DNA from: an uncultured virus (IMG/VR IMGVR_UViG_3300025671_000003)
Taxonomy: Duplodnaviria; Heunggongvirae; Uroviricota; Caudoviricetes
DNA: 20,000 bases
Virus record (IMG/VR): IMGVR_UViG_3300025671_000003
Reading direction: 5' to 3' (one strand)
Shown one piece after another: positions 7,232-19,037 of this stretch. The notes beneath the pieces are model-generated. The model worked only from the letters and a program-made list of their open reading frames with translations. It was not told the origin of the DNA and made no database searches. How positions within the stretch are numbered: position 1 is the stretch's first letter; each line of letters starts with the position of its first letter. A program made the position numbers and the translations under genes.

Positions 7232-8203
7232 ATGGCAAAAACTAAAGGAGCAAAAAACATTAAACTTTCTACAAGTCAAAACCAAAGACTTATCGACTTA
7301 TACCAAAGCTCAAAGTCTAAGAAAGAAGTTCAGAAAATTTTATCAAAAGAGTTTGGTTGTACAGAGAGAACTATAAGAGATTTAGCAAGTAAATTAAATC
7401 TCAATCAAATAGCATCGAATATATCCAACGATAAAATAATGGTTTACGATATTGAAACAAGTCGTGTAACTGCTGATTTATGGTGGACTGGTAAACAATA
7501 TGTAAATTATAAACAAGTAAGCTCAGAGCCAAAGATAATTAGTATATCTTGGAAGTGGTTAGGAGATGATAAAGTTCACGCTTTAACTTGGGATAAAGAC
7601 CATTGTGACAAAGCAATGTTAGAAAAGTTTGTGCCAGAGTATAATAAAGCACTAATGGTTATCGGACAAAACAATAATATGTTTGATAACAAGTGGATAA
7701 AAACAAGAGCTGCCAAACATCGTATTCACGTTAATAGATTTGTAAAGAGTTTTGATATTTACAGAATGGCTAAAAGTACATTTAGGCTAATAAGTTATTC
7801 AATGGATTATATGGCTATGTACTTCGGTTTAACACCTAAACAATCACACGAAGGTATTTTAATGTGGGAGATGGTTGAGAAAGGCAATCCAAAAGAGCAA
7901 AAAGAGTATTTAAAAAAGATGGTAAATTATAATGTAGGAGATATTATAACTACTGAAGAACTTTACTTAACTTTACAACCGTACTTTAACAATCAGACTA
8001 ATGTAGCAGTAAAGAAAGGATTACCAAAATGGGCTTGTCCAGTTAGTGGTTCTTTAAATGTTAAATTACAGAATACAATATATAGTTCAATGGGTACAAT
8101 ACAAAGAATATTATATTGTGAAGAAAGCAAACAGCAATTTAAAGTAAGTAATAAGACTTACCAAGATTTTTTACAAAGAGCATCAACTAAATACTGGGAA
8201 TAA
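7232..8203 (+). CDS. HTH + DnaQ/RNase H-like (DEDDy) 3'-5' exonuclease
   Basis: N-terminal HTH (LSKEFGCTERTIRDLA); ExoI VYDIET, ExoII GQNNNMFD, ExoIII YNVGD; degenerate C-terminal Zn-ribbon CPVSGS...YCEES. Confidence 0.85.
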   Translation: MAKTKGAKNIKLSTSQNQRLIDLYQSSKSKKEVQKILSKEFGCTERTIRDLASKLNLNQIASNISNDKIMVYDIETSRVTADLWWTGKQYVNYKQVSSEPKIISISWKWLGDDKVHALTWDKDHCDKAMLEKFVPEYNKALMVIGQNNNMFDNKWIKTRAAKHRIHVNRFVKSFDIYRMAKSTFRLISYSMDYMAMYFGLTPKQSHEGILMWEMVEKGNPKEQKEYLKKMVNYNVGDIITTEELYLTLQPYFNNQTNVAVKKGLPKWACPVSGSLNVKLQNTIYSSMGTIQRILYCEESKQQFKVSNKTYQDFLQRASTKYWE

Positions 8204-10185: not shown

Positions 10186-10644
10186 ATGAAATTAAAAGAT
10201 TTAAAAAAAGAAATTCCATTTCAATGGAGAGTTCAACAAGCAACAGAATATGGAGCTAATTGTGTAGCATATATTGATGCAAGAGATGTTCAAGATTTGT
10301 TAGATGATGTTTGTGGTCAAGATGGATGGCAATGTAAATATGAAGAACATAAAGGTAATTTATTTTGTAGTATAGGCATAAAAATAGGAGATACTTTTGT
10401 ATGGAAGTCAGACTGTGGAACTGAAAGCAATATAGAAAAACAAAAGGGAGAAAGTTCTGATGCTTTTAAACGTGCTGCTGTAATGTGGGGAATAGGTAGG
10501 TTTTTGTATTCTAAAGAGATTATAAAATTAGACTCAATGAAAAATAAAGCTGGTAAATGGGTAGCAAGTTATAACGGTAAAATACTTTATGGAAAACAAG
10601 TTTCTAAGGCTTGTAACTATATACTTGAAAATAAAGAAATATGA
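10186..10644 (+). CDS. sak: Rad52/Sak-family single-strand annealing protein
   Basis: AYIDARDVQDLLDDVCG..GW, WKSDCG, EKQKGESSDAFKRAAVMWGIGRFLY. Confidence 0.9.
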   Translation: MKLKDLKKEIPFQWRVQQATEYGANCVAYIDARDVQDLLDDVCGQDGWQCKYEEHKGNLFCSIGIKIGDTFVWKSDCGTESNIEKQKGESSDAFKRAAVMWGIGRFLYSKEIIKLDSMKNKAGKWVASYNGKILYGKQVSKACNYILENKEI

Positions 10645-11238: not shown

Positions 11239-12534
11239 ATGAAGATTTATAATAAAAATAAAAATGTTTATGATGCTGCTAATGAAAGAATTGAATTTAT
11301 ATTTAAAAACTTTAAAAGAATATATGTTTCATTCTCTGGTGGTAAAGATTCTGGTATAATGTTAAACTTATGTTTAGACTATATGAGAAAAAACAACATA
11401 ACTGAAAAGATAGGATTAATGGTTATGGATAATGAAGCTAACTATGAGTATTCTCTAAAGTTTATGCACGAAATAGTACAAGAAAACTTAGATTTATTAG
11501 ATGTTTATTGGTGTTGTCTACCAATAACACTTCCTTGTACAGTTAGTAGTTATGAGATAGATTGGCAATGTTGGGGTGTTAATGATGAGAGTAGATGGAT
11601 TAGACCAATGCCAAAACAAGATTATATAGTGAATATAGATAATCATAAATTTGATTTCTTCCAAGAGAATATGGGATATGATGAGTTTTGGGATAAATTT
11701 GGTGATTGGTTTGCACAAGGCGAAAGTTGTGCTTGTTTGATTGGTATTCGTACTGATGAAAGTTTGAACAGGTATAGGGCTATTATGAATAAAAAGAAAG
11801 GAATGATTAATAACTTATGTTGGACAAAGAAAAATACTGAATATGTTTATAATTGTTACCCTATTTATGATTGGAGAACTGATGATGTTTGGGTTGCAAA
11901 CGCAAAGTTTGACTGGAAATATAACGAGCTTTATGATATATTTTGGAAGGCTGGTTTAACAGTAGCACAAATGAGAGTTGCAAGTCCATTTATGAGTGAA
12001 GCTAAGAGTAGTTTGAATTTATACAAGGTTATCGATTCTCACGTGTGGGCAAGACTTTGTGCAAGAGTTTCTGGAGCTAACTTTATGGCTACATATGGTA
12101 AACAGCTAAACTATCGTTCATTTTCTTTGCCAGAAGGACACACTTGGAAGAGTTTTACAAAGTTCTTGTTAGATACTTTACCTAATGAGTCTGGAGAAAA
12201 TTTTAAGAAACGCTTTATTCAGTCAATTAAGTACTGGTGGAGAATAGGGCGTGGGTTGCCAGATAATGTTATTGAAGATATGAAGGAAAATAAAATAGAA
12301 TTTATTGAGGGTGAAAAAACAAGGCACGGAAATAAGGATAAAACGTGTGTAAGAATGTTGCCCCCAGACCACCTTGATATGTTGAAATGTCATAATTCGG
12401 ATGTTACAAGCTGGAAAAGATTTGCTATAACTATATTAAAAAATGACCATACTTGTAAATATTTAGGGTTAGCACCAACACACGAACAAGCAAAAAGACA
12501 AAGAGAAATACAAACTAAATATAAAAACATATAA
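11239..12534 (+). CDS. ibrA: IbrA/YbdN-like PAPS-reductase-family (PP-loop) protein with DUF3440 C-terminal domain
   Basis: YVSFSGGKDSG PP-loop, WCCLP, LIGIRTDESLNRY, YPIYDWRTDDVW, QMRVASPF, RVSGANF, LPEGHTWKSF, SWKRFAITILKND. Confidence 0.92.
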   Translation: MKIYNKNKNVYDAANERIEFIFKNFKRIYVSFSGGKDSGIMLNLCLDYMRKNNITEKIGLMVMDNEANYEYSLKFMHEIVQENLDLLDVYWCCLPITLPCTVSSYEIDWQCWGVNDESRWIRPMPKQDYIVNIDNHKFDFFQENMGYDEFWDKFGDWFAQGESCACLIGIRTDESLNRYRAIMNKKKGMINNLCWTKKNTEYVYNCYPIYDWRTDDVWVANAKFDWKYNELYDIFWKAGLTVAQMRVASPFMSEAKSSLNLYKVIDSHVWARLCARVSGANFMATYGKQLNYRSFSLPEGHTWKSFTKFLLDTLPNESGENFKKRFIQSIKYWWRIGRGLPDNVIEDMKENKIEFIEGEKTRHGNKDKTCVRMLPPDHLDMLKCHNSDVTSWKRFAITILKNDHTCKYLGLAPTHEQAKRQREIQTKYKNI

Positions 12535-12545
12535 AAACAAATAAG

Positions 12546-13013
12546 ATGAAAGTAAGAACTATTAAAGAAATTGAAAACACAGAAAGAGATGTTAATTTTA
12601 AGGAGGGTAAAAGTTTGAGAATTGTATTAGCTAAAGATAATATGGGATTCTCAATACATAAAACAATAATACCAAAAGGGCAAAAAGGTCATTGGCATTA
12701 TAAACATCATTTAGAATCTTGTTACTGTATAAAAGGTAGTGGAATTTTAACCAACTTAAACACAAAAGAAGTTTTTAATATAAATGTTGACACCGTATAT
12801 TCTTTAGATGATAATGATAATCACACATTTGAAGCTCTTGAAGATGTTGTTTTGATAAGTGTTTTTAATCCACCAGTTACTGGAAATGAAATACACCAAA
12901 AAGATGGTAGTTATTCTATGAATAAAGCTAAAGATATTGTTTACTCAATAAGTGAATGCACAAATGATTATGATGCAATAGAAAAAGTTAATGAATTATT
13001 AATGAAAAAATAA
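12546..13013 (+). CDS. ectC: Ectoine synthase (EctC)-like cupin, orphan, with C-terminal extension
   Basis: MKVRT..E...TERDV, R..LAKDNMGFS.H.T.I, HYKHHLESCYCI.G.G, VY.LD..D.H, VFNPPVTG.E.H..DG.Y track the EctC consensus over its length; metal-ligand equivalents E57, Y85, H93 present. Confidence 0.88.
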   Translation: MKVRTIKEIENTERDVNFKEGKSLRIVLAKDNMGFSIHKTIIPKGQKGHWHYKHHLESCYCIKGSGILTNLNTKEVFNINVDTVYSLDDNDNHTFEALEDVVLISVFNPPVTGNEIHQKDGSYSMNKAKDIVYSISECTNDYDAIEKVNELLMKK

Positions 13014-13019
13014 AAAGAA

Positions 13020-13541
13020 ATGGAAAAGTTTATGTCACCAGTCTATAACGTACTTAGAGTTCCAATAGACAAAATACAAGCAAATGATTATAACCCTAAT
13101 AGTGTTGCTCCACCAGAAATGGAACTACTTGAAACATCAATTTGGGAAGATGGATATACTATGCCAGTTGTATGCTTTAGAGATGAAGAAAATGATAAAT
13201 ACATTGTTGTTGATGGATTCCACAGATATACAGTATTAAAAAACTCAAAAAGAATATTTGATAGAGAAGAAGGGATGCTTCCAATATCTGTAATTGATAA
13301 GGAGCTTGGCGATAGAATGGCTTCTACTATTCGACATAATAGAGCAAGAGGTTCTCACAATTTAGAACTTATGAGTACTATAGTTAGTGAATTGGTTGAG
13401 ATGGGGAAGGGTGATGCTTGGATATGTAAGCACGTTGGTATGTCTCCAGATGAACTACTAAGAATGAAGCAAATAACTGGTTTAGCCTCATTATTTCAAA
13501 ATAAAGATTTCTCAGATAGCTGGGATGCTGAAATGGTATGA
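13020..13541 (+). CDS. ibrB: IbrB/YbdM-like ParB/Srx N-terminal domain protein
   Basis: ANDYNPNSVAPPEMELLETSIWEDGYTMPVV, IVVDGFHRY, RMASTIRHNRARGSH, C-terminal HTH-like ICKHVGMSPDELLRMKQITGL. Confidence 0.92.
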   Translation: MEKFMSPVYNVLRVPIDKIQANDYNPNSVAPPEMELLETSIWEDGYTMPVVCFRDEENDKYIVVDGFHRYTVLKNSKRIFDREEGMLPISVIDKELGDRMASTIRHNRARGSHNLELMSTIVSELVEMGKGDAWICKHVGMSPDELLRMKQITGLASLFQNKDFSDSWDAEMV

Positions 13542-13975
13542 TTCAAGTTTATCATCCATATTGGAAGTGGGAATGCTATAAAAATGGTATGTGGTTAAAA
13601 TCAAGTGACTATGATAATCAACTAAAAGAGGCTATCAAATTTACTGGAAACCACATACTTTATGGTAACGCAATGAATGAAGTTATTTATTCTTGGAGAT
13701 ACACAATAGAACACCACTTATCAAATAAATCAATTAATAGAAGAGCTTTTATTGGTCATTGTGCTGTATTTTATAAAAAATTAATACCTGAATATATTGT
13801 TAGGGATGCTTGGAAACATCTAAGCGACAAGCAAAGAACATTAGCAGACAATGAAGCAGAAAAAGCTATTAAAGAATGGGAATTATGGTACACAAAAAAG
13901 TTACAGATTATATCAAAACTTGGGAGTCAAGAGGATATAAAGAAGGGATACCAGATGAAGCTCCTTTTGAGTTAA
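13538..13975 (+). CDS. Trp/His-rich hypothetical protein coupled to ibrB
   Basis: 145 aa; YHPYWKWECYKNGMW, WRYTIEHHLSN.SINRRAFIGHCA, AW..L; ATGA overlap with ibrB. Confidence 0.75.
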   Translation: MIQVYHPYWKWECYKNGMWLKSSDYDNQLKEAIKFTGNHILYGNAMNEVIYSWRYTIEHHLSNKSINRRAFIGHCAVFYKKLIPEYIVRDAWKHLSDKQRTLADNEAEKAIKEWELWYTKKLQIISKLGSQEDIKKGYQMKLLLS

Positions 13976-14145
13976 AAGATAAAGTTCCTTCATATAAAAA
14001 TATATGTATAGCTTTATTAAAAAATGATATGAATTTAACTTCATTAGGATATAAGCCAAAATATACTAAGTATTATTCTGTTTTAAAAAGAATAGAAATA
14101 GATGCCAGACCAACAAAGTATAAACAACTAAAGTTAAAAATATGA
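13876..14145 (+). CDS. Stand-alone DUF3440 C-terminal-like protein
   Basis: YIKTWESRGYKEGIPDEAP...VPSYKNICIALLKND..LTSLGYKP aligns by eye with IbrA C-terminus (IKYWWRIGRGLPD...VTSWKRFAITILKNDHTCKYLGLAP). Confidence 0.72.
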   Translation: MGIMVHKKVTDYIKTWESRGYKEGIPDEAPFELKDKVPSYKNICIALLKNDMNLTSLGYKPKYTKYYSVLKRIEIDARPTKYKQLKLKI

Positions 14146-14759
14146 ATTTACCTAAAAAAGATAAAAACGGCAATAGTTATTTAAGCTATTCACAAATATC
14201 ACTATTTAAAAGAGATAAAGACGAATACTACCAAAACTATATTATAGGTAAAAAGTTTGAGGGTAATGAATATACTGATTTTGGAAGCAAGGTTGGTGAG
14301 GCTTTAGAAAAAAATGACTTTACAAGTTTTAGCGAACAAGAAAGTAATATATTAAAACAAGTTACAAGGTTAGATGAATTTGAAAGGCGTGTAATACTAA
14401 AGTATGAAGGTTTTTATATTGTCGGATATGTTGACACAAATAAAAAAGACTTAACAAGAATAATAGATTATAAAACTGGAGGATTAAAAAAGGAGTGGCA
14501 ATATGTTAAACCAGAGTATACACAGCTACATATTTACGCTTTATCAATAAGGCAAGAAACTGGAATAACGCCGACCAAAGCAAGTGTTGAATTTATAAGA
14601 AGAACTGGAAATGCTTATAAAGGTCAAAAACTTAAAGTTGCAAATGAAAGTCCTACAACAATAGAAGTAGATGTTAGTATTAATAAATTAAAAAGAGTTT
14701 ACTGGGAAACATTAGAAACAGCAAAACAGATAGAAAAATTTTATAAAAAAACATTATGA
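14142..14759 (+). CDS. PD-(D/E)XK exonuclease (RecB/Cas4-like)
   Basis: LSYSQISLF, FGSKV, GYVD, IIDYKTG, QLHIYA. Confidence 0.85.
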   Translation: MNLPKKDKNGNSYLSYSQISLFKRDKDEYYQNYIIGKKFEGNEYTDFGSKVGEALEKNDFTSFSEQESNILKQVTRLDEFERRVILKYEGFYIVGYVDTNKKDLTRIIDYKTGGLKKEWQYVKPEYTQLHIYALSIRQETGITPTKASVEFIRRTGNAYKGQKLKVANESPTTIEVDVSINKLKRVYWETLETAKQIEKFYKKTL

Positions 14760-14953
14760 ATTGGAAAGTATTAAAACAAACTTTAATTGCTCTTACGCTA
14801 ATATTTTTAATCGGTTGGATAACTATATCGGAAAATAAAAGAAAGTCGCTTAGAAGTGAGATAAAGAGCCTTAAAAAGCACATTGAAGTATTAAAAACAA
14901 TTAACAATAAAAATATATGGGCATACACAAATGTAAGGGCAGAAGAAAAATAG
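14756..14953 (+). CDS. Small membrane protein
   Basis: N-terminal TM helix TLIALTLIFLIGWITI plus coiled coil. Confidence 0.55.
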   Translation: MNWKVLKQTLIALTLIFLIGWITISENKRKSLRSEIKSLKKHIEVLKTINNKNIWAYTNVRAEEK

Positions 14954-15219
14954 AGGCGCTAACAAAGCAAGAACAAATTAAACTATTAAATAATAATTCG
15001 CTTTATGAAGTTGCTGGAGTTTATAATGTATCTTATCAAACAGTTAAGACTATTTATGATAAATTATTTGAAAATAGAGATATTGGATTTGGTGATGCCG
15101 ATTTAAAAAAAGAATTAATAGAAGAAAAAGATTTAATTATTCCAAAAGATATTTGGATGAAATCAAAAGAAAGACTATATTTACAAACAATTAAAAAAAC
15201 AATAAATTATGAACATTAA
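14917..15219 (+). CDS. Hypothetical protein, possible HTH
   Basis: SLYEVAGVYNVSYQTVKTIY resembles a helix-turn-helix; start uncertain. Confidence 0.5.
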   Translation: MGIHKCKGRRKIEALTKQEQIKLLNNNSLYEVAGVYNVSYQTVKTIYDKLFENRDIGFGDADLKKELIEEKDLIIPKDIWMKSKERLYLQTIKKTINYEH

Positions 15220-15544
15220 AGGAAAATTAAGTAAAAAATTGCCAATAGAAAGTGGTACAACTAAAGCAGATAAAGAGTGGAGAAAGCAAAGTATAGTGAT
15301 AGATACAGAAGCTCAATATAATCCATTAGTAGCAATATCATTTTTTGGAGATGATAAAATTAAGATGCTTGAAAAGTATAAAGAAGGGCAAAGTGTAGAT
15401 GTAGGAATTAATATTTCAAGTAGAGAATTTAATGGTAAATGGTATCATTCAATTGATGGTTGGAAAATTGATAATGTTGGAGAAAGTAAACCAGCAAAAT
15501 TAAATAATAGTGATGAAGATTTAGAAGATGATTTACCATTTTAA
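15209..15544 (+). CDS. DUF3127-family OB-fold protein (putative SSB)
   Basis: GTTKADKEWRKQ, QYNP, FFGDDKI, INISSREFNGKWY.SIDGWKI, acidic tail EDDLPF. Confidence 0.88.
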   Translation: MNIKGKLSKKLPIESGTTKADKEWRKQSIVIDTEAQYNPLVAISFFGDDKIKMLEKYKEGQSVDVGINISSREFNGKWYHSIDGWKIDNVGESKPAKLNNSDEDLEDDLPF

Positions 15545-15551
15545 ATAATAT

Positions 15552-15643
15552 AAGCCCCACTCAAATTAATTAATTTATTATAAACTTTAAACAAGCGAGT
15601 GAGGACTCGGATTCGGTTAATAAATACTTAAAGAGTGGGGTTT
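15552..15643 (+). ncRNA. Candidate structured RNA / long nested stem-loop
   Basis: Nested pairings 15552-15562/15633-15643, 15573-15580/15618-15625, 15596-15600/15605-15609 filling an intergenic gap. Confidence 0.45.
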
Positions 15644-15656
15644 TAAAAACTAAAAT

Positions 15657-15830
15657 ATGAAGATATCAATAACTGAGAATGAATTATCAACTTTAGAGCA
15701 AGAAAAAGACGGCTTTAGTTATCGTTTAAACGGAGATTTTAAAAGAAGTGGTTTTAAGACTAAGGAAGATGCAATAAAAGATGCTGAACATCATTTAAAA
15801 AAGTTTGTTTTACAAAGAATTAAAAAATAG
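15657..15830 (+). CDS. 57 aa protein with Arm-DNA-binding-like motif (not in ORF track)
   Basis: MKISITENELSTLEQEKDGFSYRLNGDFKRSGFKTKEDAIKDAEHHLKKFVLQRIKK; SGFKTKEDA motif. Confidence 0.6.
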   Translation: MKISITENELSTLEQEKDGFSYRLNGDFKRSGFKTKEDAIKDAEHHLKKFVLQRIKK

Positions 15831-15836
15831 AAAAAT

Positions 15837-15998
15837 ATGGAATTAATAAGCACAGTAATAGGTTTAATAGTATTAATAATTATACTAACCTTACCAAGTA
15901 AACTAAACAAGATTTTAACTAATCAAAAGAACTTAGATAAGAAATTAGATATTATTTCTAAAAATCAAGGTGTAATTGAGGGTAAGTTAAAAAAATAA
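15837..15998 (+). CDS. 53 aa membrane protein (not in ORF track)
   Basis: MELISTVIGLIVLIIILTLPSKLNKILTNQKNLDKKLDIISKNQGVIEGKLKK: TM helix plus coiled coil. Confidence 0.6.
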   Translation: MELISTVIGLIVLIIILTLPSKLNKILTNQKNLDKKLDIISKNQGVIEGKLKK

Positions 15999-16002
15999 TT
16001 AG

Positions 16003-16126
16003 TATATTTGTATTTTATAAAACAATAAAAACGACCAAATGAAAAGCAAAATTAAATAATTAAAGCACCCTTTAGCAAGTTTCGGTTTCTTGGTCGTTAC
16101 CTATGTCTTGTTGATGTGGTGCTTTA
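16003..16126 (+). promoter_or_regulatory. -7 promoter element and structured 5' leader of the replication operon
   Basis: TATATTTG at 16003-16010 (no clear -33); hairpin 16061-16126 whose loop is complementary to 16030-16038. Confidence 0.5.
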
Positions 16127-16141
16127 TAATATACGGAATGT

Positions 16142-16666
16142 ATGAAATTTTTAGAAAAAGATTTGGAACAAATCATTTATGAAACAGAGCCATTGGAATT
16201 ATGTAAAAGAGGGATTTATTTTTTAGATGGTAAGGCTTTAAGACAATTAAGGATTGGAAATTATGGTGTTGCTGATTTAGTTTATTTTAATAGGGAATTA
16301 ACAACAATGGATAATAAATTTGAACCGTTTCTTAATATAAATATAGTTGAGTTGAAAAAAGATAAGATTGGTATATCTGCTTTATTACAATCAGTAAATT
16401 ATTTAAAAGGAATTAAGAGTTATATTGAACAAAGAAAACCTAAATTACATGTATCTTATAACATCACTTTAATAGGAAAAACAATAGATACATCTGGTTC
16501 TTTTATATATCTAACAGATATTATTAATGCTGGTGATTGTTTTGGGTTTAATGAATTTAATAGCTTATCAAAATTGAGTTATTATACTTATGATTATAAT
16601 ATTGATGGGCTGAAATTTAAATCTCATTGTAATTACACACTAAAAGATGAGGGTTTTAAATTATGA
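16142..16666 (+). CDS. Restriction-endonuclease-fold (NucS-like PD-(D/E)XK) protein
   Basis: LEKDLEQII, RQLRIGNYGVADLV, IVELKK, ALLQSVNY. Confidence 0.7.
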   Translation: MKFLEKDLEQIIYETEPLELCKRGIYFLDGKALRQLRIGNYGVADLVYFNRELTTMDNKFEPFLNINIVELKKDKIGISALLQSVNYLKGIKSYIEQRKPKLHVSYNITLIGKTIDTSGSFIYLTDIINAGDCFGFNEFNSLSKLSYYTYDYNIDGLKFKSHCNYTLKDEGFKL

Positions 16667-17442
16667 GAATTAACGGATTTACACAGATAAAAGCGTTTTA
16701 TTCTTGGACTTTTAGTCATCAAGAAAAACAAATAAAACCACAACATATTAGTTTATACTTATTCTTACTTAATCAAAACAATCGTAATAATTGGATTGAG
16801 TGGTTTAAATGCCCTTTTGATTTAGCTATGACTGGTAGTTGTATTTCAAGCAAAAAAACTTATTATAAGTGCTTAAACGAGCTACAAGAGTGGAAGTTAA
16901 TACAATATCAAAAAGGTAGTAATAATTGGAAAGCTCCACTAATAAAAATAGAGGTACTAAAAGACGCCTCTACTGTACCTCAAAGTGAACCTCAAGTGTT
17001 ACAAGCAGACGAACCTCTACTTACCCTACTACCTACCCATATATATAAACTAATAACAGATAACATAGAACGTGTAAGTAAACATCTCCCGCAATGGATT
17101 TCTAATTTAGACGGTGAGCCTATAAAAAATGATTTAGATTCTAATGAAAAATTTTTAAGCTGGTTTAATAAAGGTAGAACTTTATATTTAGAAATACCAT
17201 CAAATGTTAATAGATTAACTCAAATAGATAAATCTAATCTACATAAACTTAAAGAAAGTTATTCTAAAGAAGATTTTAATATAGCTCTACATAATATCTG
17301 TAATGATAAGTGGGCTAATGAAACTAATAACATAATGCCTAAACACTTTCTAAATGAAGATAATTTTGCTAAATATCTAAATATGGAAAAGAAGCCGTTA
17401 ATATCTAAGTCTAAAAAAGTGAGGTTAGGATGGAAAATATAA
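16663..17442 (+). CDS. Replication initiator / replisome organizer
   Basis: N-terminal wHTH-like region (ISLYLFLL, SKKTYYKCLNELQEWKLIQY), repetitive linker, C-terminal helical domain (PKHFLNEDNFAKYLN); upstream of helicase. Confidence 0.75.
   Translation: MRINGFTQIKAFYSWTFSHQEKQIKPQHISLYLFLLNQNNRNNWIEWFKCPFDLAMTGSCISSKKTYYKCLNELQEWKLIQYQKGSNNWKAPLIKIEVLKDASTVPQSEPQVLQADEPLLTLLPTHIYKLITDNIERVSKHLPQWISNLDGEPIKNDLDSNEKFLSWFNKGRTLYLEIPSNVNRLTQIDKSNLHKLKESYSKEDFNIALHNICNDKWANETNNIMPKHFLNEDNFAKYLNMEKKPLISKSKKVRLGWKI
16972..17043. repeat. Degenerate 12-bp tandem repeats, putative origin iterons
   Basis: ACTGTACCTCAA AGTGAACCTCAA GTGTTACAAGCA GACGAACCTCTA CTTACCCTACTA CCTACCCATATA followed by AT-rich DNA, inside the initiator gene. 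Confidence 0.5.
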
Positions 17443-18353
17443 CAAAACAAGATAGCATAAACGAATATTTACAAGACTATCACGCTGGTAAAATATCTAA
17501 AGGCTTAGATACTGGATTATCTAAATTAGATGATTCAATAAGATTTAAAGATGGTCAATTAGTTATTATAAATGGGTTAGATAATGTTGGTAAAACAATA
17601 TGGATGCTATGGTATTTTCTTTGTTTATCAATTAAACATAATCTTAAATGGTGTATTTATAGTGGAGAGAATAAAGCTGGTCAATTAGTTAGGCAATTAA
17701 TACAGTTTAAGACTGGTAAGAGATTAAAAGATTTACAGTTAAGTGAAGTTTTTAGACACGAAATAGAAATAAAAGAATGGTTTACTTTTGTAGATAATTC
17801 TAACTTATACAAAACAAAAGACTTGTTTAAGATTTATAAGTCTGGAGATTTTAACGGTTGTTTAATAGACCCTTTTACTGGATTAGATAGAGAATTTACT
17901 CACGCTGCAAATTATCAGTTTTTAAATGAATGTAGAGATTTTTGTAATCAAACAAATAAAACTCTTTATGTTAATACACACGTAGTAAGTGAGGCAGCAC
18001 GTAGAACTTATGGAGAGGGTCACGAATACGCTGGTTATCCATTCCCACCAAGTAAAGCACAAAGCGAGGGTGGTCAACCATTCGGTAATAGAACAGATGA
18101 TTTTATTACAATTCATAGATTAGTAGGGCATCCAATTAAAAACTATATTACAGATGTTTACATAAGAAAAATAAAAGATACTGAAACTGGTGGAATGGTA
18201 ACTTCAATAGAAGACCCGTTAGAATTTAATTTTAATGCTGGATTAGGTTTTACTTTAGATGGAATTAACCCATTGAGTGAAACTAAAAAAGATGATTTAG
18301 AATTAAGCAGTTTAGAAACAAATAAAGATTTTGACAATGAGTGTCCTTTCTAA
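17430..18353 (+). CDS. DnaB-like (SF4) replicative helicase, motor domain only
   Basis: GLDTGLSKLD, Walker A GLDNVGKT, YSGEN, Walker B CLIDP, NTH, NRTDDFITIHR, KIKDTETGG. Confidence 0.88.
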   Translation: MENITKQDSINEYLQDYHAGKISKGLDTGLSKLDDSIRFKDGQLVIINGLDNVGKTIWMLWYFLCLSIKHNLKWCIYSGENKAGQLVRQLIQFKTGKRLKDLQLSEVFRHEIEIKEWFTFVDNSNLYKTKDLFKIYKSGDFNGCLIDPFTGLDREFTHAANYQFLNECRDFCNQTNKTLYVNTHVVSEAARRTYGEGHEYAGYPFPPSKAQSEGGQPFGNRTDDFITIHRLVGHPIKNYITDVYIRKIKDTETGGMVTSIEDPLEFNFNAGLGFTLDGINPLSETKKDDLELSSLETNKDFDNECPF

Positions 18354-18558
18354 AGACGATATAACTAAATTAAAAATAAACGATAGTATTCAATTTTTAC
18401 AAGGTCAATTAGAACTTTATAAGATAGAATTTGCTAATACTGGAGATAATAAGTATATTGCTACAATGAACGATATTAAAAAGTCTATTGAAGTTATTGA
18501 TTTTTTAGATAGGGCTTTAATGTATAGGACTAAGCAATATATAAAACTAAAAAGATAA
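18331..18558 (+). CDS. Hypothetical protein
   Basis: 75 aa helical ORF; start may be 18337. Confidence 0.55.
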   Translation: MTMSVLSKDDITKLKINDSIQFLQGQLELYKIEFANTGDNKYIATMNDIKKSIEVIDFLDRALMYRTKQYIKLKR

Positions 18559-18567
18559 AAACAAATA

Positions 18568-18795
18568 ATGAAACCAATAAACAAACATCTTGTATCAATA
18601 AACACTATATTCACAATACACGAAAAGAAGTATAAGGTGATAACAATAGGTAAATTAAGAGGAACTAAAAGAGGTTGGTTTATTAGACCTTTATCTGGTG
18701 GTAGAGATTTCTTTAAAGACGCTTATGAATTAGATAAAATACTAAGAAAGCATAAGGCAGAAAATCAACATCTTTTGTATGATGTAAATTTATGA
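18568..18795 (+). CDS. Hypothetical protein
   Basis: 75 aa basic ORF with A-rich leader. Confidence 0.6.
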   Translation: MKPINKHLVSINTIFTIHEKKYKVITIGKLRGTKRGWFIRPLSGGRDFFKDAYELDKILRKHKAENQHLLYDVNL

Positions 18796-19037
18796 AGAAA
18801 TATAAAAAAATATATATTGACTATTATGATTATTGCGAAAGTGATGTAATACTTTGTGAGATTTGTAAATCTGTTGCCGTTGATATACACCATTTAATAG
18901 CTAAAGGAATGGGTGGTAGTAAAACAAAAGATTATATTGAAAACTTAATAGCAGTTTGTAGAGATTGTCATAACAAATGCCACGCAAGTATAGAGTTTAA
19001 TAGTAAAGCCAAAGAGATACATAAAAACAATTTATGA
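18792..19037 (+). CDS. HNH endonuclease
   Basis: CEIC....DIHH.....MGGS.....IENLIAVCRDCHNKCH. Confidence 0.9.
   Translation: MKKYKKIYIDYYDYCESDVILCEICKSVAVDIHHLIAKGMGGSKTKDYIENLIAVCRDCHNKCHASIEFNSKAKEIHKNNL

Follow-up and report, generated by a model that had tools for sequence, protein, structure and literature searches.

A five-gene cassette in an uncultured tailed phage

The IMG/VR record IMGVR_UViG_3300025671_000003 represents an uncultured tailed virus, and the window analyzed here is the final 20 kb of this 37,942-bp contig (CheckV completeness estimate 53%). The window has a GC content of 25–34%, and the contig carries a tailed-phage gene set that includes a head protease, a portal protein, the exonuclease subunit of a DNA polymerase, a primase-helicase, an HNH protein, and a RusA-like protein. 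At positions 11239–14145, five plus-strand open reading frames (ORFs) encode an IbrA-like PP-loop enzyme, an EctC-like cupin, an IbrB-like protein, a protein that we refer to as unk145, and a small protein resembling the end of IbrA, here called mini-DUF3440 (Table 1). The first three genes are separated by gaps of 11 and 6 nucleotides, the following ones overlap by 4 and 100 nucleotides, and a further 4-nucleotide overlap leads into the downstream gene. An earlier description made from the DNA letters alone (the sequence-only reading) had reported five co-oriented, tightly packed genes at this position, between Sak-region genes and a PD-(D/E)XK nuclease; the ORF listing reproduces all of its coordinates, gaps, and overlaps, and the two flanks match PF04098 and PF12705.

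Neither the two flanking genes nor the 118-amino acid ORF directly upstream of the cassette have relatives in the first 17 related loci that we collected (see below). As no flanking gene recurs in these loci, the conserved unit is exactly the segment 11239–14145.

Table 1. Genes of the cassette and neighboring features in the window
Feature	Coordinates	Strand	Length (amino acids)	Family match of flanking gene
IbrA-like PP-loop enzyme, PAPS-reductase-like core and DUF3440	11239–12534	+	431	
EctC-like cupin, ectoine-synthase family, divergent substrate pocket	12546–13013	+	155	
IbrB-like protein, ParB/Srx fold	13020–13541	+	173	
unk145, predicted all-helical, family-less	13538–13975	+	145	
mini-DUF3440, free-standing copy of the IbrA C-terminal segment	13876–14145	+	89	
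Rad52/Sak-type protein, upstream flank	10186–10644			PF04098, 3.4e-14
PD-(D/E)XK nuclease, downstream flank	14142–14759			PF12705, 6.1e-7
DUF3127 protein, downstream	15209–15544			phrog_4932, 'single strand DNA binding protein'

The cassette recurs in nested forms, and the EctC-like gene has a single origin

When the EctC-like protein was used as a tblastn query against cultured phages, five records were returned. Four of them carry the cassette: Pseudoalteromonas phage XCL1123, Mycobacterium phage Nebkiss, and Mycobacterium phage Gaia (two records). The fifth (MT835761) proved to be an ectB-ectC fragment and was dropped from the counts of cassette phages. In this locus (L003; MT835761.1, reverse complement 13290–18907, titled 'UNVERIFIED: Bacteriophage sp.'), a class-III aminotransferase gene precedes one for a complete EctC (9.7e-57), which is the ordinary bacterial arrangement. 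The same query retrieved 14 loci from IMG/VR. Among these first 17 loci, all five genes are present in 14; contig ends truncate two others, and the last is the ectB-ectC locus. In L008 and L009 the gene order is permuted and the set is intact. The IbrA and IbrB proteins of the window's low-GC phage are 62–78% identical to those of the Mycobacterium and Pseudoalteromonas phages. The EctC-like gene is thus recurrently linked to ibrA and ibrB across cultured-phage and IMG/VR loci, often as a fusion to ibrB, contrary to the lack of recurrent linkage that the sequence-only reading had named as a refuting outcome.

Relatives of IbrB occur in 152 of 50,697 phage records, most of which have no EctC. 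An additional search with an unk145 alignment yielded 274 confirmed IMG/VR stretches, of which the best 80 were examined, together with 18 loci from genome bins. IbrA and IbrB stand beside unk145 in 76 of these 80 viral loci and in all 18 genome loci; three of the four viral exceptions lie at contig ends, and the fourth is the locus L043 described below. The cassettes take nested forms: EctC and mini-DUF3440 are both present in 43 of the 76 viral and 4 of the 18 genome loci, mini-DUF3440 occurs without EctC in 12 and 2, and both are missing from 21 and 12, respectively. EctC in the absence of mini-DUF3440 was found in none of the loci of either set (0/76 and 0/18).

In a tree of 108 IbrA sequences, from which four duplicates of other contigs and the ectB-ectC locus were omitted, the EctC cassettes fall into one 54-row clade on a long stem (Shimodaira–Hasegawa-like approximate likelihood ratio test support 100), and only two changes of EctC state are needed; the remaining three rows of this clade are two truncated loci and L043. 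The IbrA proteins of two-gene forms fall on the same tree. This topology indicates that the EctC-like gene arrived once, as a late and optional addition to the IbrAB lineage. It does not belong to the core, which is a wider three- or four-gene IbrAB form to which EctC was added. Among the genome bins, those with EctC bear the titles Flavobacterium, Pelobium, Planctomycetota, and Thiotrichaceae, and the cultured hosts are Pseudoalteromonas and Mycobacterium; thus, the cassette has spread across phyla.

The EctC-like cupin retains its catalytic residues and has an altered substrate pocket

The assignment of the second gene as an EctC homolog holds at the level of the family thresholds. The protein matches Pfam Ectoine_synth (PF06339) over the whole profile with 154.1 bits (2.9e-45; cut-off 27) and passes the cut-off of the NCBIfam ectoine synthase model NF009806 (157.9 versus 128 bits); it also aligns to the EctC structures 5bxx (4.9e-26) and 5onm (2.4e-24) in the PDB. 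We mapped its residues on the EctC of Paenibacillus lautus, with residue roles taken from PMC6344544. The iron ligands Glu-57 and Tyr-84 as well as His-92 in the numbering of that source correspond to E57, Y85, and H93 in the window protein, and 62 of the 63 cassette copies preserve the triad. The ligand contacts S23, R25, T40, Y52, and F107 (also given as Phe-106) are likewise kept in 62 of 63; as described for EctC, Thr-40 contacts the alpha-amine, and Tyr-52 and Glu-57 contact the amide nitrogen (PMC6344544).

A different picture emerges for Trp-21, which according to the same source presses on the diaminobutyrate chain, is needed for activity, and is conserved in EctC proteins of ect clusters and even in orphan EctC (PMC6344544). 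This residue is present in none of the 63 cassette copies, versus 41 of 47 bacterial EctC proteins from ect-type loci that served as a control in the same alignment. The window protein has a glycine at this site, and no tryptophan lies within four residues on either side in any of the 63 copies. Conversely, Cys-59 is specific to the cassettes (62/63), whereas bacterial EctC has a valine there in 43 of 47 sequences. Judged by these residues, the EctC-like enzyme looks active but retuned, probably performing the same type of reaction on a different and bulkier substrate. The ordinary ectoine precursor is an unlikely substrate, given the loss of Trp-21 and the gain of new cysteines.

IbrA and IbrB belong to the PP-loop and ParB/Srx superfamilies

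The window IbrA matches DUF3440 (PF11922) over profile positions 1–181 of 182 (2.3e-56), the 3'-phosphoadenosine 5'-phosphosulfate (PAPS) reductase family PAPS_reduct (PF01507; 2.5e-10), and phrog_2302 (1.9e-110). Its PP-loop motif S-[GAC]-G-K-D-S and the residues R171, E174, and S175 are invariant across the 108 IbrA rows (one row is gapped at the motif). Six cysteines (C92, C93, C100, C111, C274, and C406) are kept in 51–53 of the 53 rows of the EctC clade and are variable in the other clades. The only defense-system protein in PADLOC that IbrA matches is DndC, and this similarity is remote and local (2e-8, restricted to residues 162–262, approximately 100 residues); against the NCBIfam DndC model TIGR03183, IbrA reaches 23.2 bits (2.8e-5) where the cut-off is 290.4, and it thus fails as an equivalog of DndC/SspD. 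The PP-loop/PAPS-reductase assignment made from sequence alone accordingly stands at the superfamily level, with an intact motif and a distant DndC match. An AlphaFold2 model of IbrA was poor (predicted local distance difference test score, pLDDT, 56.1; built from an 11-row alignment). A second, shorter PAPS_reduct-domain ORF (1.5e-6) was observed in L065 (8102–8899), downstream of an unk145-mini-IbrA-IbrB cassette.

IbrB is a well-conserved protein, with a mean column identity of 82% across 12 sequences, and the window copy is 64.5% identical to a protein annotated as IbrB in Streptococcus phage CHPC877; in PHROGs, it matches phrog_2159 (7.8e-79). Its similarity to ParB is weaker: it scores below the cut-offs both with Pfam ParB_N (2.3e-4) and with TIGR00180 (parB_part; residues 13–155, 1.5e-4), the latter alignment running through the helix-turn-helix region of ParB. 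The closest solved relative is SbnI (5uje; E 0.003 over approximately 60 residues, with a common D-G-x-H-R-Y-T stretch), which going by its PDB title is also a transcriptional regulator. The ParB/Srx assignment of IbrB thus holds at the same superfamily level as that of IbrA. No match of IbrB to DndB or to a named Dpd component was found in PADLOC at E ≤ 0.01. At the left genome end of Microbacterium phage Rasputia (L024, 1–1890), three successive ParB-like genes precede a helix-turn-helix protein and the terminase; the first of them is an IbrB relative (53.6% identity), and IbrA was not detected in the 4.1 kb covered.

unk145 is a constant partner, and mini-DUF3440 is a duplicated IbrA tail

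The fourth gene, unk145, has no family match in Pfam, PHROGs, NCBIfam, or PADLOC. Its relatives comprise 614 clusters when grouped at 90% identity; 807 representatives were counted at the 50% level. None of them contains a Pfam domain. Its AlphaFold2 model is confident (pLDDT 90.6) and all-helical; fold searches with this model gave no convincing relative, either with Foldseek against the PDB (best E 0.94) or with VIA-align against 48,161 chains (best Z 4.5), and the ESM Atlas returned no usable feature match and no structure above a template modeling score of 0.38. By its occurrence, unk145 is the constant third partner and the best marker of this IbrAB lineage. Its homolog in Microcystis phage Mwe-JY13 is annotated 'ParB/sulfiredoxin'.

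mini-DUF3440 matches PF11922 at profile positions 138–175 (2.4e-5) with 24.6 bits, just below the 25-bit cut-off, and phrog_15645 in PHROGs (3e-8). A profile built from it picks up the C-terminal ends of IbrA proteins, with the strongest hits in cassettes that have no separate copy (1.4e-25 and 5e-22); the small gene is therefore a detached duplicate of the IbrA tail. The overlap with unk145 is kept in most of 70 adjacent pairs: the conserved region of the small gene begins before the unk145 stop codon, in either frame, and most pairs provide the small gene with an ATG of its own.

In the window, an A-AAA-AAG heptamer at 13894–13900 lies in register with the unk145 frame, and a -1 slip there would continue in the mini-DUF3440 frame. 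A programmed -1 frameshift joining the two genes was nevertheless rejected as a conserved feature: the small gene lies in the +1 frame in 47 of the 70 pairs and in the -1 frame in 23, an in-register heptamer is present in only 4 of these 23, and most pairs have the separate ATG. The heptamer in the window is probably a chance feature of an A-rich genome.

Cassette proteins are fused to each other and joined by further ectoine-type enzymes

Several parts of the cassette occur as single polypeptides elsewhere. All 107 longer relatives of EctC hold both an EctC and an IbrB domain, and 15 of the 76 viral loci encode EctC and IbrB in a single frame. unk145 and mini-DUF3440 are fused in 4 of 150 listed representatives. 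IbrA and IbrB form one 541-amino acid frame in L025 (MT836384.1, 218–1840), where the IbrA part ends at profile position 358 and is devoid of the tail that mini-DUF3440 resembles.

Additional enzymes join the cassette in some phages. In L043, an ORF that overlaps the end of IbrA by 4 nucleotides encodes a PhyH-family dioxygenase (PF05721, 3.5e-30), whose best solved relatives are the ectoine hydroxylase EctD structures 3emr (3.1e-40) and 4mhr (4.4e-38). The best NCBIfam model of this EctD-like protein is TIGR02408, ectoine hydroxylase (3.9e-46), with 157.6 bits against a cut-off of 336.5 for an ORF that is cut by the contig end. It matches 13 of 17 positions of the EctD signature stretch, F143–P159 of VsEctD as given in PMC3979721. 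Its nearest relatives form a phage-type group (40–95% identity), while named bacterial EctD proteins are 34–39% identical. A search with an alignment of this group found four IMG/VR loci; in all four, the EctD-like gene directly follows IbrA, and EctC comes next in the three complete ones. In a scan of metagenomes, the order IbrA – EctD-like – EctC is present in the three best of 80 loci; a fourth, 1.4-kb contig carries only the EctD-like gene and EctC, and the other 76 look bacterial and have neither IbrA nor IbrB. Seven related contigs in all carry the EctD-like gene inside the cassette, while the window cassette is without it, and no relatives were found in the cultured-phage collection. 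The EctD-bearing contigs are distinct at the DNA level, except for L122 and L125 (80% identical over 2.1 kb); L122, which shares its contig with L027, is closely related to the window cassette.

A second addition is a 177-amino acid protein with weak similarity to methyltransferases (E 0.003–0.016), present on two contigs. It is encoded by a separate gene in L027 and forms the middle domain of an EctC–X–IbrB fusion in L123, the two versions being 64% identical to each other; none was found in the metagenome loci.

An EctB-type aminotransferase (PF00202) is absent from the window contig and from four complete phage records (two from GenBank and two from IMG/VR at 100% completeness), with the control for this search positive in 14 of 14 genomes; EctA was not searched. 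We conclude from the absence of this aminotransferase that the cassette is not an ectoine pathway. Instead, enzymes of the ectoine pathway were taken into the cassette as tailoring steps. The proposal of the sequence-only reading that the genes belong to one pathway is strengthened both by the fusions among its parts and by the EctD-like and methyltransferase-like genes that join at the same place.

The cassette resides among replication and recombination genes

We compared 234 ORFs around 36 loci with Pfam (E ≤ 1e-5). The families matched are those of replication, recombination, and nucleotide metabolism: DnaA_C (7), DUF3127 (5), Rad52, DNA methylases, and primase or DnaB helicases (3 each), ERF, SSB, NinG, and YqaJ (2 each), as well as RecT, ThyX, dUTPase, and dCMP deaminase. 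Terminase and portal families are absent from the matches of these flanking ORFs. DUF3127 proteins and small proteins with a DnaA C-terminal helix-turn-helix recur near the cassette, in the window and in L028, L045, L057, L065, and L097. Microcystis phage Mwe-JY13 (L020, PP438406.1) has a three-gene form in the order IbrB-unk145-IbrA, with YqaJ and RecT recombinase genes immediately downstream. Downstream of a three-gene cassette in L036, an ORF of the S-adenosylmethionine decarboxylase family (7379–7681; PF02675, 4.3e-12) adjoins an N6/N4 DNA methylase.

Proposed function and alternative explanations

We infer complex formation, a target, an order of steps, and a biological role as follows. 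With a rough probability of 45%, the five gene products, a built-up version of the IbrA/IbrB pair of phages, form one multi-enzyme complex for installing an ectoine-like group on nucleic acid, with phage DNA during replication as the most likely target. IbrA, as a PP-loop ATP pyrophosphatase, would activate the substrate with ATP. IbrB would bind a nucleotide and most likely anchor the complex to DNA through its ParB-like helix-turn-helix region, and unk145 together with mini-DUF3440 might form an accessory part imitating the tail of IbrA. In the reaction proposed for the EctC-like cupin, a tailoring enzyme that uses iron, an amine would attack an amide or a carbonyl with activation by the metal, as in ectoine synthase, and give a cyclic amidine, or the reverse would take place; the substrate may be larger than, or other than, N-acetyl-diaminobutyrate. 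Placed on the phage's own replicating DNA, such a group could shield it from host nucleases.

PP-loop enzymes activate a substrate oxygen with adenosine monophosphate, and ParB-fold proteins bind nucleoside triphosphates. DndC is, according to PMC10853773, an ATP pyrophosphatase and possibly one that adenylates the target, DpdB provides a precedent for a ParB-like partner with DpdA (PMC12839542), and phage T-dioxygenases, which act on thymine, are reported to need a ParB-like activator (PMC13229309). It is because of this activation chemistry, the nucleotide binding of the ParB fold, and these precedents for DNA-modification partners that we favor a nucleic-acid-modifying complex. The loci themselves add a co-inherited and partly fused gene set, a single arrival of EctC, one to three tailoring enzymes whose catalytic residues are retained, and a neighborhood of DNA replication and recombination genes.

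Several points weigh against this interpretation. Every functional step of the cassette is deduced, and the GenBank label of IbrA and IbrB, 'co-activator of prophage gene expression', points to regulation. The matches of IbrB to ParB families are weak and below the cut-offs, its DNA binding is a prediction, and its nearest solved relative, SbnI, is a small-molecule kinase that would suit a metabolite pathway equally. No source of a diamino acid substrate is encoded, the EctB-type aminotransferase being found in 0 of the 4 complete phage records. The share of cassettes with EctC is biased upward, as the viral loci examined were the 80 most similar of 274. Finally, the genomic position varies: the two-gene form of Flavobacterium phage FCOV-F46 sits between the terminase and the portal, and the five-gene form of XCL1123 lies approximately 800 nucleotides upstream of the portal gene.

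A more specific version, which we consider improbable in its full detail, is a previously unknown DNA hypermodification in which phage DNA carries an ectoine-like cyclic amidine group of the tetrahydropyrimidine-carboxylate type. Here, IbrA would use ATP to activate a carboxyl, carbonyl, or phosphate linked to a base or to the backbone, a donor resembling a diamino acid would be added, and the EctC-like cupin, tethered by IbrB, would close the ring on DNA; in some phages, the product might then be hydroxylated by the EctD-like enzyme or methylated. On this view, the series of forms from three through four, five, and six to seven genes would reflect successive grades of one pathway.

Alternatively, though this too is unlikely, the product could be a free small molecule, ectoine-like or nucleotide-linked, and possibly an anti-defense or signaling compound, with IbrB acting as an SbnI-like kinase and IbrA transferring adenylyl groups. 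The relationship of IbrB to the serine kinase and regulator SbnI (E 0.003) fits such a pathway, as do variable tailoring genes, which are typical of metabolite pathways, and the fact that EctC and EctD are small-molecule enzymes whose ligand-contacting residues are largely kept in the cassette. Yet the fusion partner of the tailoring domains is a ParB-like protein whose alignment to ParB extends through the helix-turn-helix region, and an enzyme that would supply the precursor, such as EctB, is not encoded. The missing Trp-21 and the additional cysteines speak against the ordinary ectoine precursor, and the cassette is steadily found close to genes of replication and recombination.

A mainly regulatory role of IbrAB, in the control of packaging or of gene expression in phages or prophages, appears quite unlikely; the cupin would in this case be a ligand sensor fused to a DNA-binding ParB-like protein and not an enzyme. 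The GenBank co-activator label would fit this role, SbnI is by its PDB title also a transcriptional regulator, the pair stands beside terminase and portal genes in some phages, and a paper on phage FCL-2 ties E. coli IbrAB to immunoglobulin-binding and serum-resistance phenotypes (PMC4541368). Against a purely regulatory role, both the unchanged PP-loop in the 108 IbrA rows and the iron triad in 62 of 63 EctC copies speak for catalysis, and the EctD-like and methyltransferase-like enzymes that join at the same position are hard to reconcile with a mere sensor cupin; regulation could, moreover, itself follow from a modification of nucleic acid.

Phosphorothioate modification of the DNA backbone in the manner of Dnd/Ssp, with IbrA as DndC and IbrB as DndB, is very unlikely. 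DndC is the one defense-system match of IbrA (PADLOC 2e-8; TIGR03183 2.8e-5), DndB is described as a ParB-superfamily protein (PMC10853773), both IbrA and the EctC-like protein have gained clade-specific cysteines within the EctC clade, and a 2026 paper suggests phage PAPS-reductase-like genes as candidate anti-defense genes of the DndC/SspD type (PMC13551039). The DndC match is, however, confined to approximately 100 residues and to 23 bits against a cut-off of 290, IbrB has no DndB match at E ≤ 0.01, and the cysteines vary in IbrA clades that have no EctC. Cysteine desulfurase, DndD, and DndE are absent among the Pfam matches of 14 window ORFs and the 234 flanking ORFs (whole genomes were not searched), and Dnd chemistry has no need of EctC- or EctD-type enzymes. 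Lastly, an auxiliary metabolic gene by which the phage boosts host ectoine synthesis for osmoprotection is the most improbable explanation, since the passing of both ectoine-synthase thresholds and the EctD-like gene alongside in some phages are set against the lack of an EctB-type aminotransferase in the window contig and in 4 of 4 complete phage records, the loss of Trp-21 from 63 of 63 cassette copies (kept in 41 of 47 bacterial EctC), and a gene that is always embedded in an IbrAB cassette and often fused to IbrB.

Relationship to known systems and implications

One of the closest known counterparts of the cassette is the IbrA/IbrB pair (YbdN/YbdM in E. coli; 'PAPS reductase' and 'ParB-like' in phages), in which a PP-loop and DUF3440 protein is likewise coupled with a partner of the ParB/Srx fold. 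The cassette differs from this pair by the EctC-like gene between the two, by unk145, and by the free copy of the IbrA tail, and IbrA of the EctC clade is set apart on its long branch by the six clade-specific cysteines. No mechanistic study of the plain pair was found in the literature searched. With EctC and EctD of ectABCD operons, the cassette proteins share the sequence family, the iron ligands, and most ligand contacts; in contrast to these operons, the cassette has no ectB (ectA was not searched), has lost Trp-21 and gained C59, and carries these genes within, or fused to, IbrAB, and the EctD-like protein, from an ORF cut by the contig end, stays below the equivalog threshold of EctD.

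DndB and DndC, as well as SspD and BrxP, resemble the cassette in coupling a PP-loop enzyme of the PAPS-reductase type with a member of the ParB superfamily, but the cassette proteins score far under the family thresholds, DndA, DndD, and DndE were not seen in the window and flank scans, and the accessory enzymes are of another kind. In DpdB/DpdA and the ParB-dependent T-dioxygenases, as far as described, a ParB-fold protein stands beside a post-replication DNA-modifying enzyme and is needed by it; however, their catalytic partners are a transglycosylase and an iron- and 2-oxoglutarate-dependent dioxygenase, and the likeness to IbrB considered here is one of fold. No DpdA-type family (tRNA-guanine-transglycosylase-like) was present among the Pfam matches of the window and flanking ORFs. 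Among the free-serine kinases SbnI and SerK, SbnI shares the D-G-x-H-R-Y-T stretch with IbrB, but only at E 0.003 over approximately 60 residues, and SbnI comes from a siderophore pathway and has no PP-loop partner.

The sequence-only reading knew of no description of the arrangement. This does not hold for annotation, as GenBank already names gp104 of Mycobacterium phage Gaia and the XCL1123 genes 'ectoine synthase/ParB multidomain protein' beside 'PAPS reductase'; it does hold for publications, insofar as no paper discussing the fusion and no functional account of the cassette was found in the literature searched. The terms IbrA, IbrB, cupin, and ectoine are absent from PMC10853773 and PMC12704722, supplements aside, and in a genomics paper the XCL1123 gene is classed as a PAPS reductase of the sulfur cycle (PMC10232697). 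New, as far as we have seen, are the nested three- to seven-gene forms, the one-time origin of EctC accompanied by parallel cysteine changes in IbrA, the absence of Trp-21, and the EctD-like and methyltransferase-like genes that have been recruited.

IbrA/IbrB pairs in phages are routinely mislabeled as 'PAPS reductase' of sulfur metabolism or as partition proteins. The cassette offers a first chemical handle on IbrAB, with two enzymes of well-understood ectoine reactions recruited to it and one of them fused to IbrB; the product is thereby narrowed to a compound carrying an amide or amine able to close into a cyclic amidine. As the cultured phages Gaia, Nebkiss, and XCL1123 carry the cassette, the question is directly testable. 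If the target is DNA, the cassette would stand for a phage DNA modification of a new class, one that bears on restriction evasion, sequencing artifacts, and enzyme tools; if it is not, the cassette would constitute a new phage-encoded metabolite pathway.

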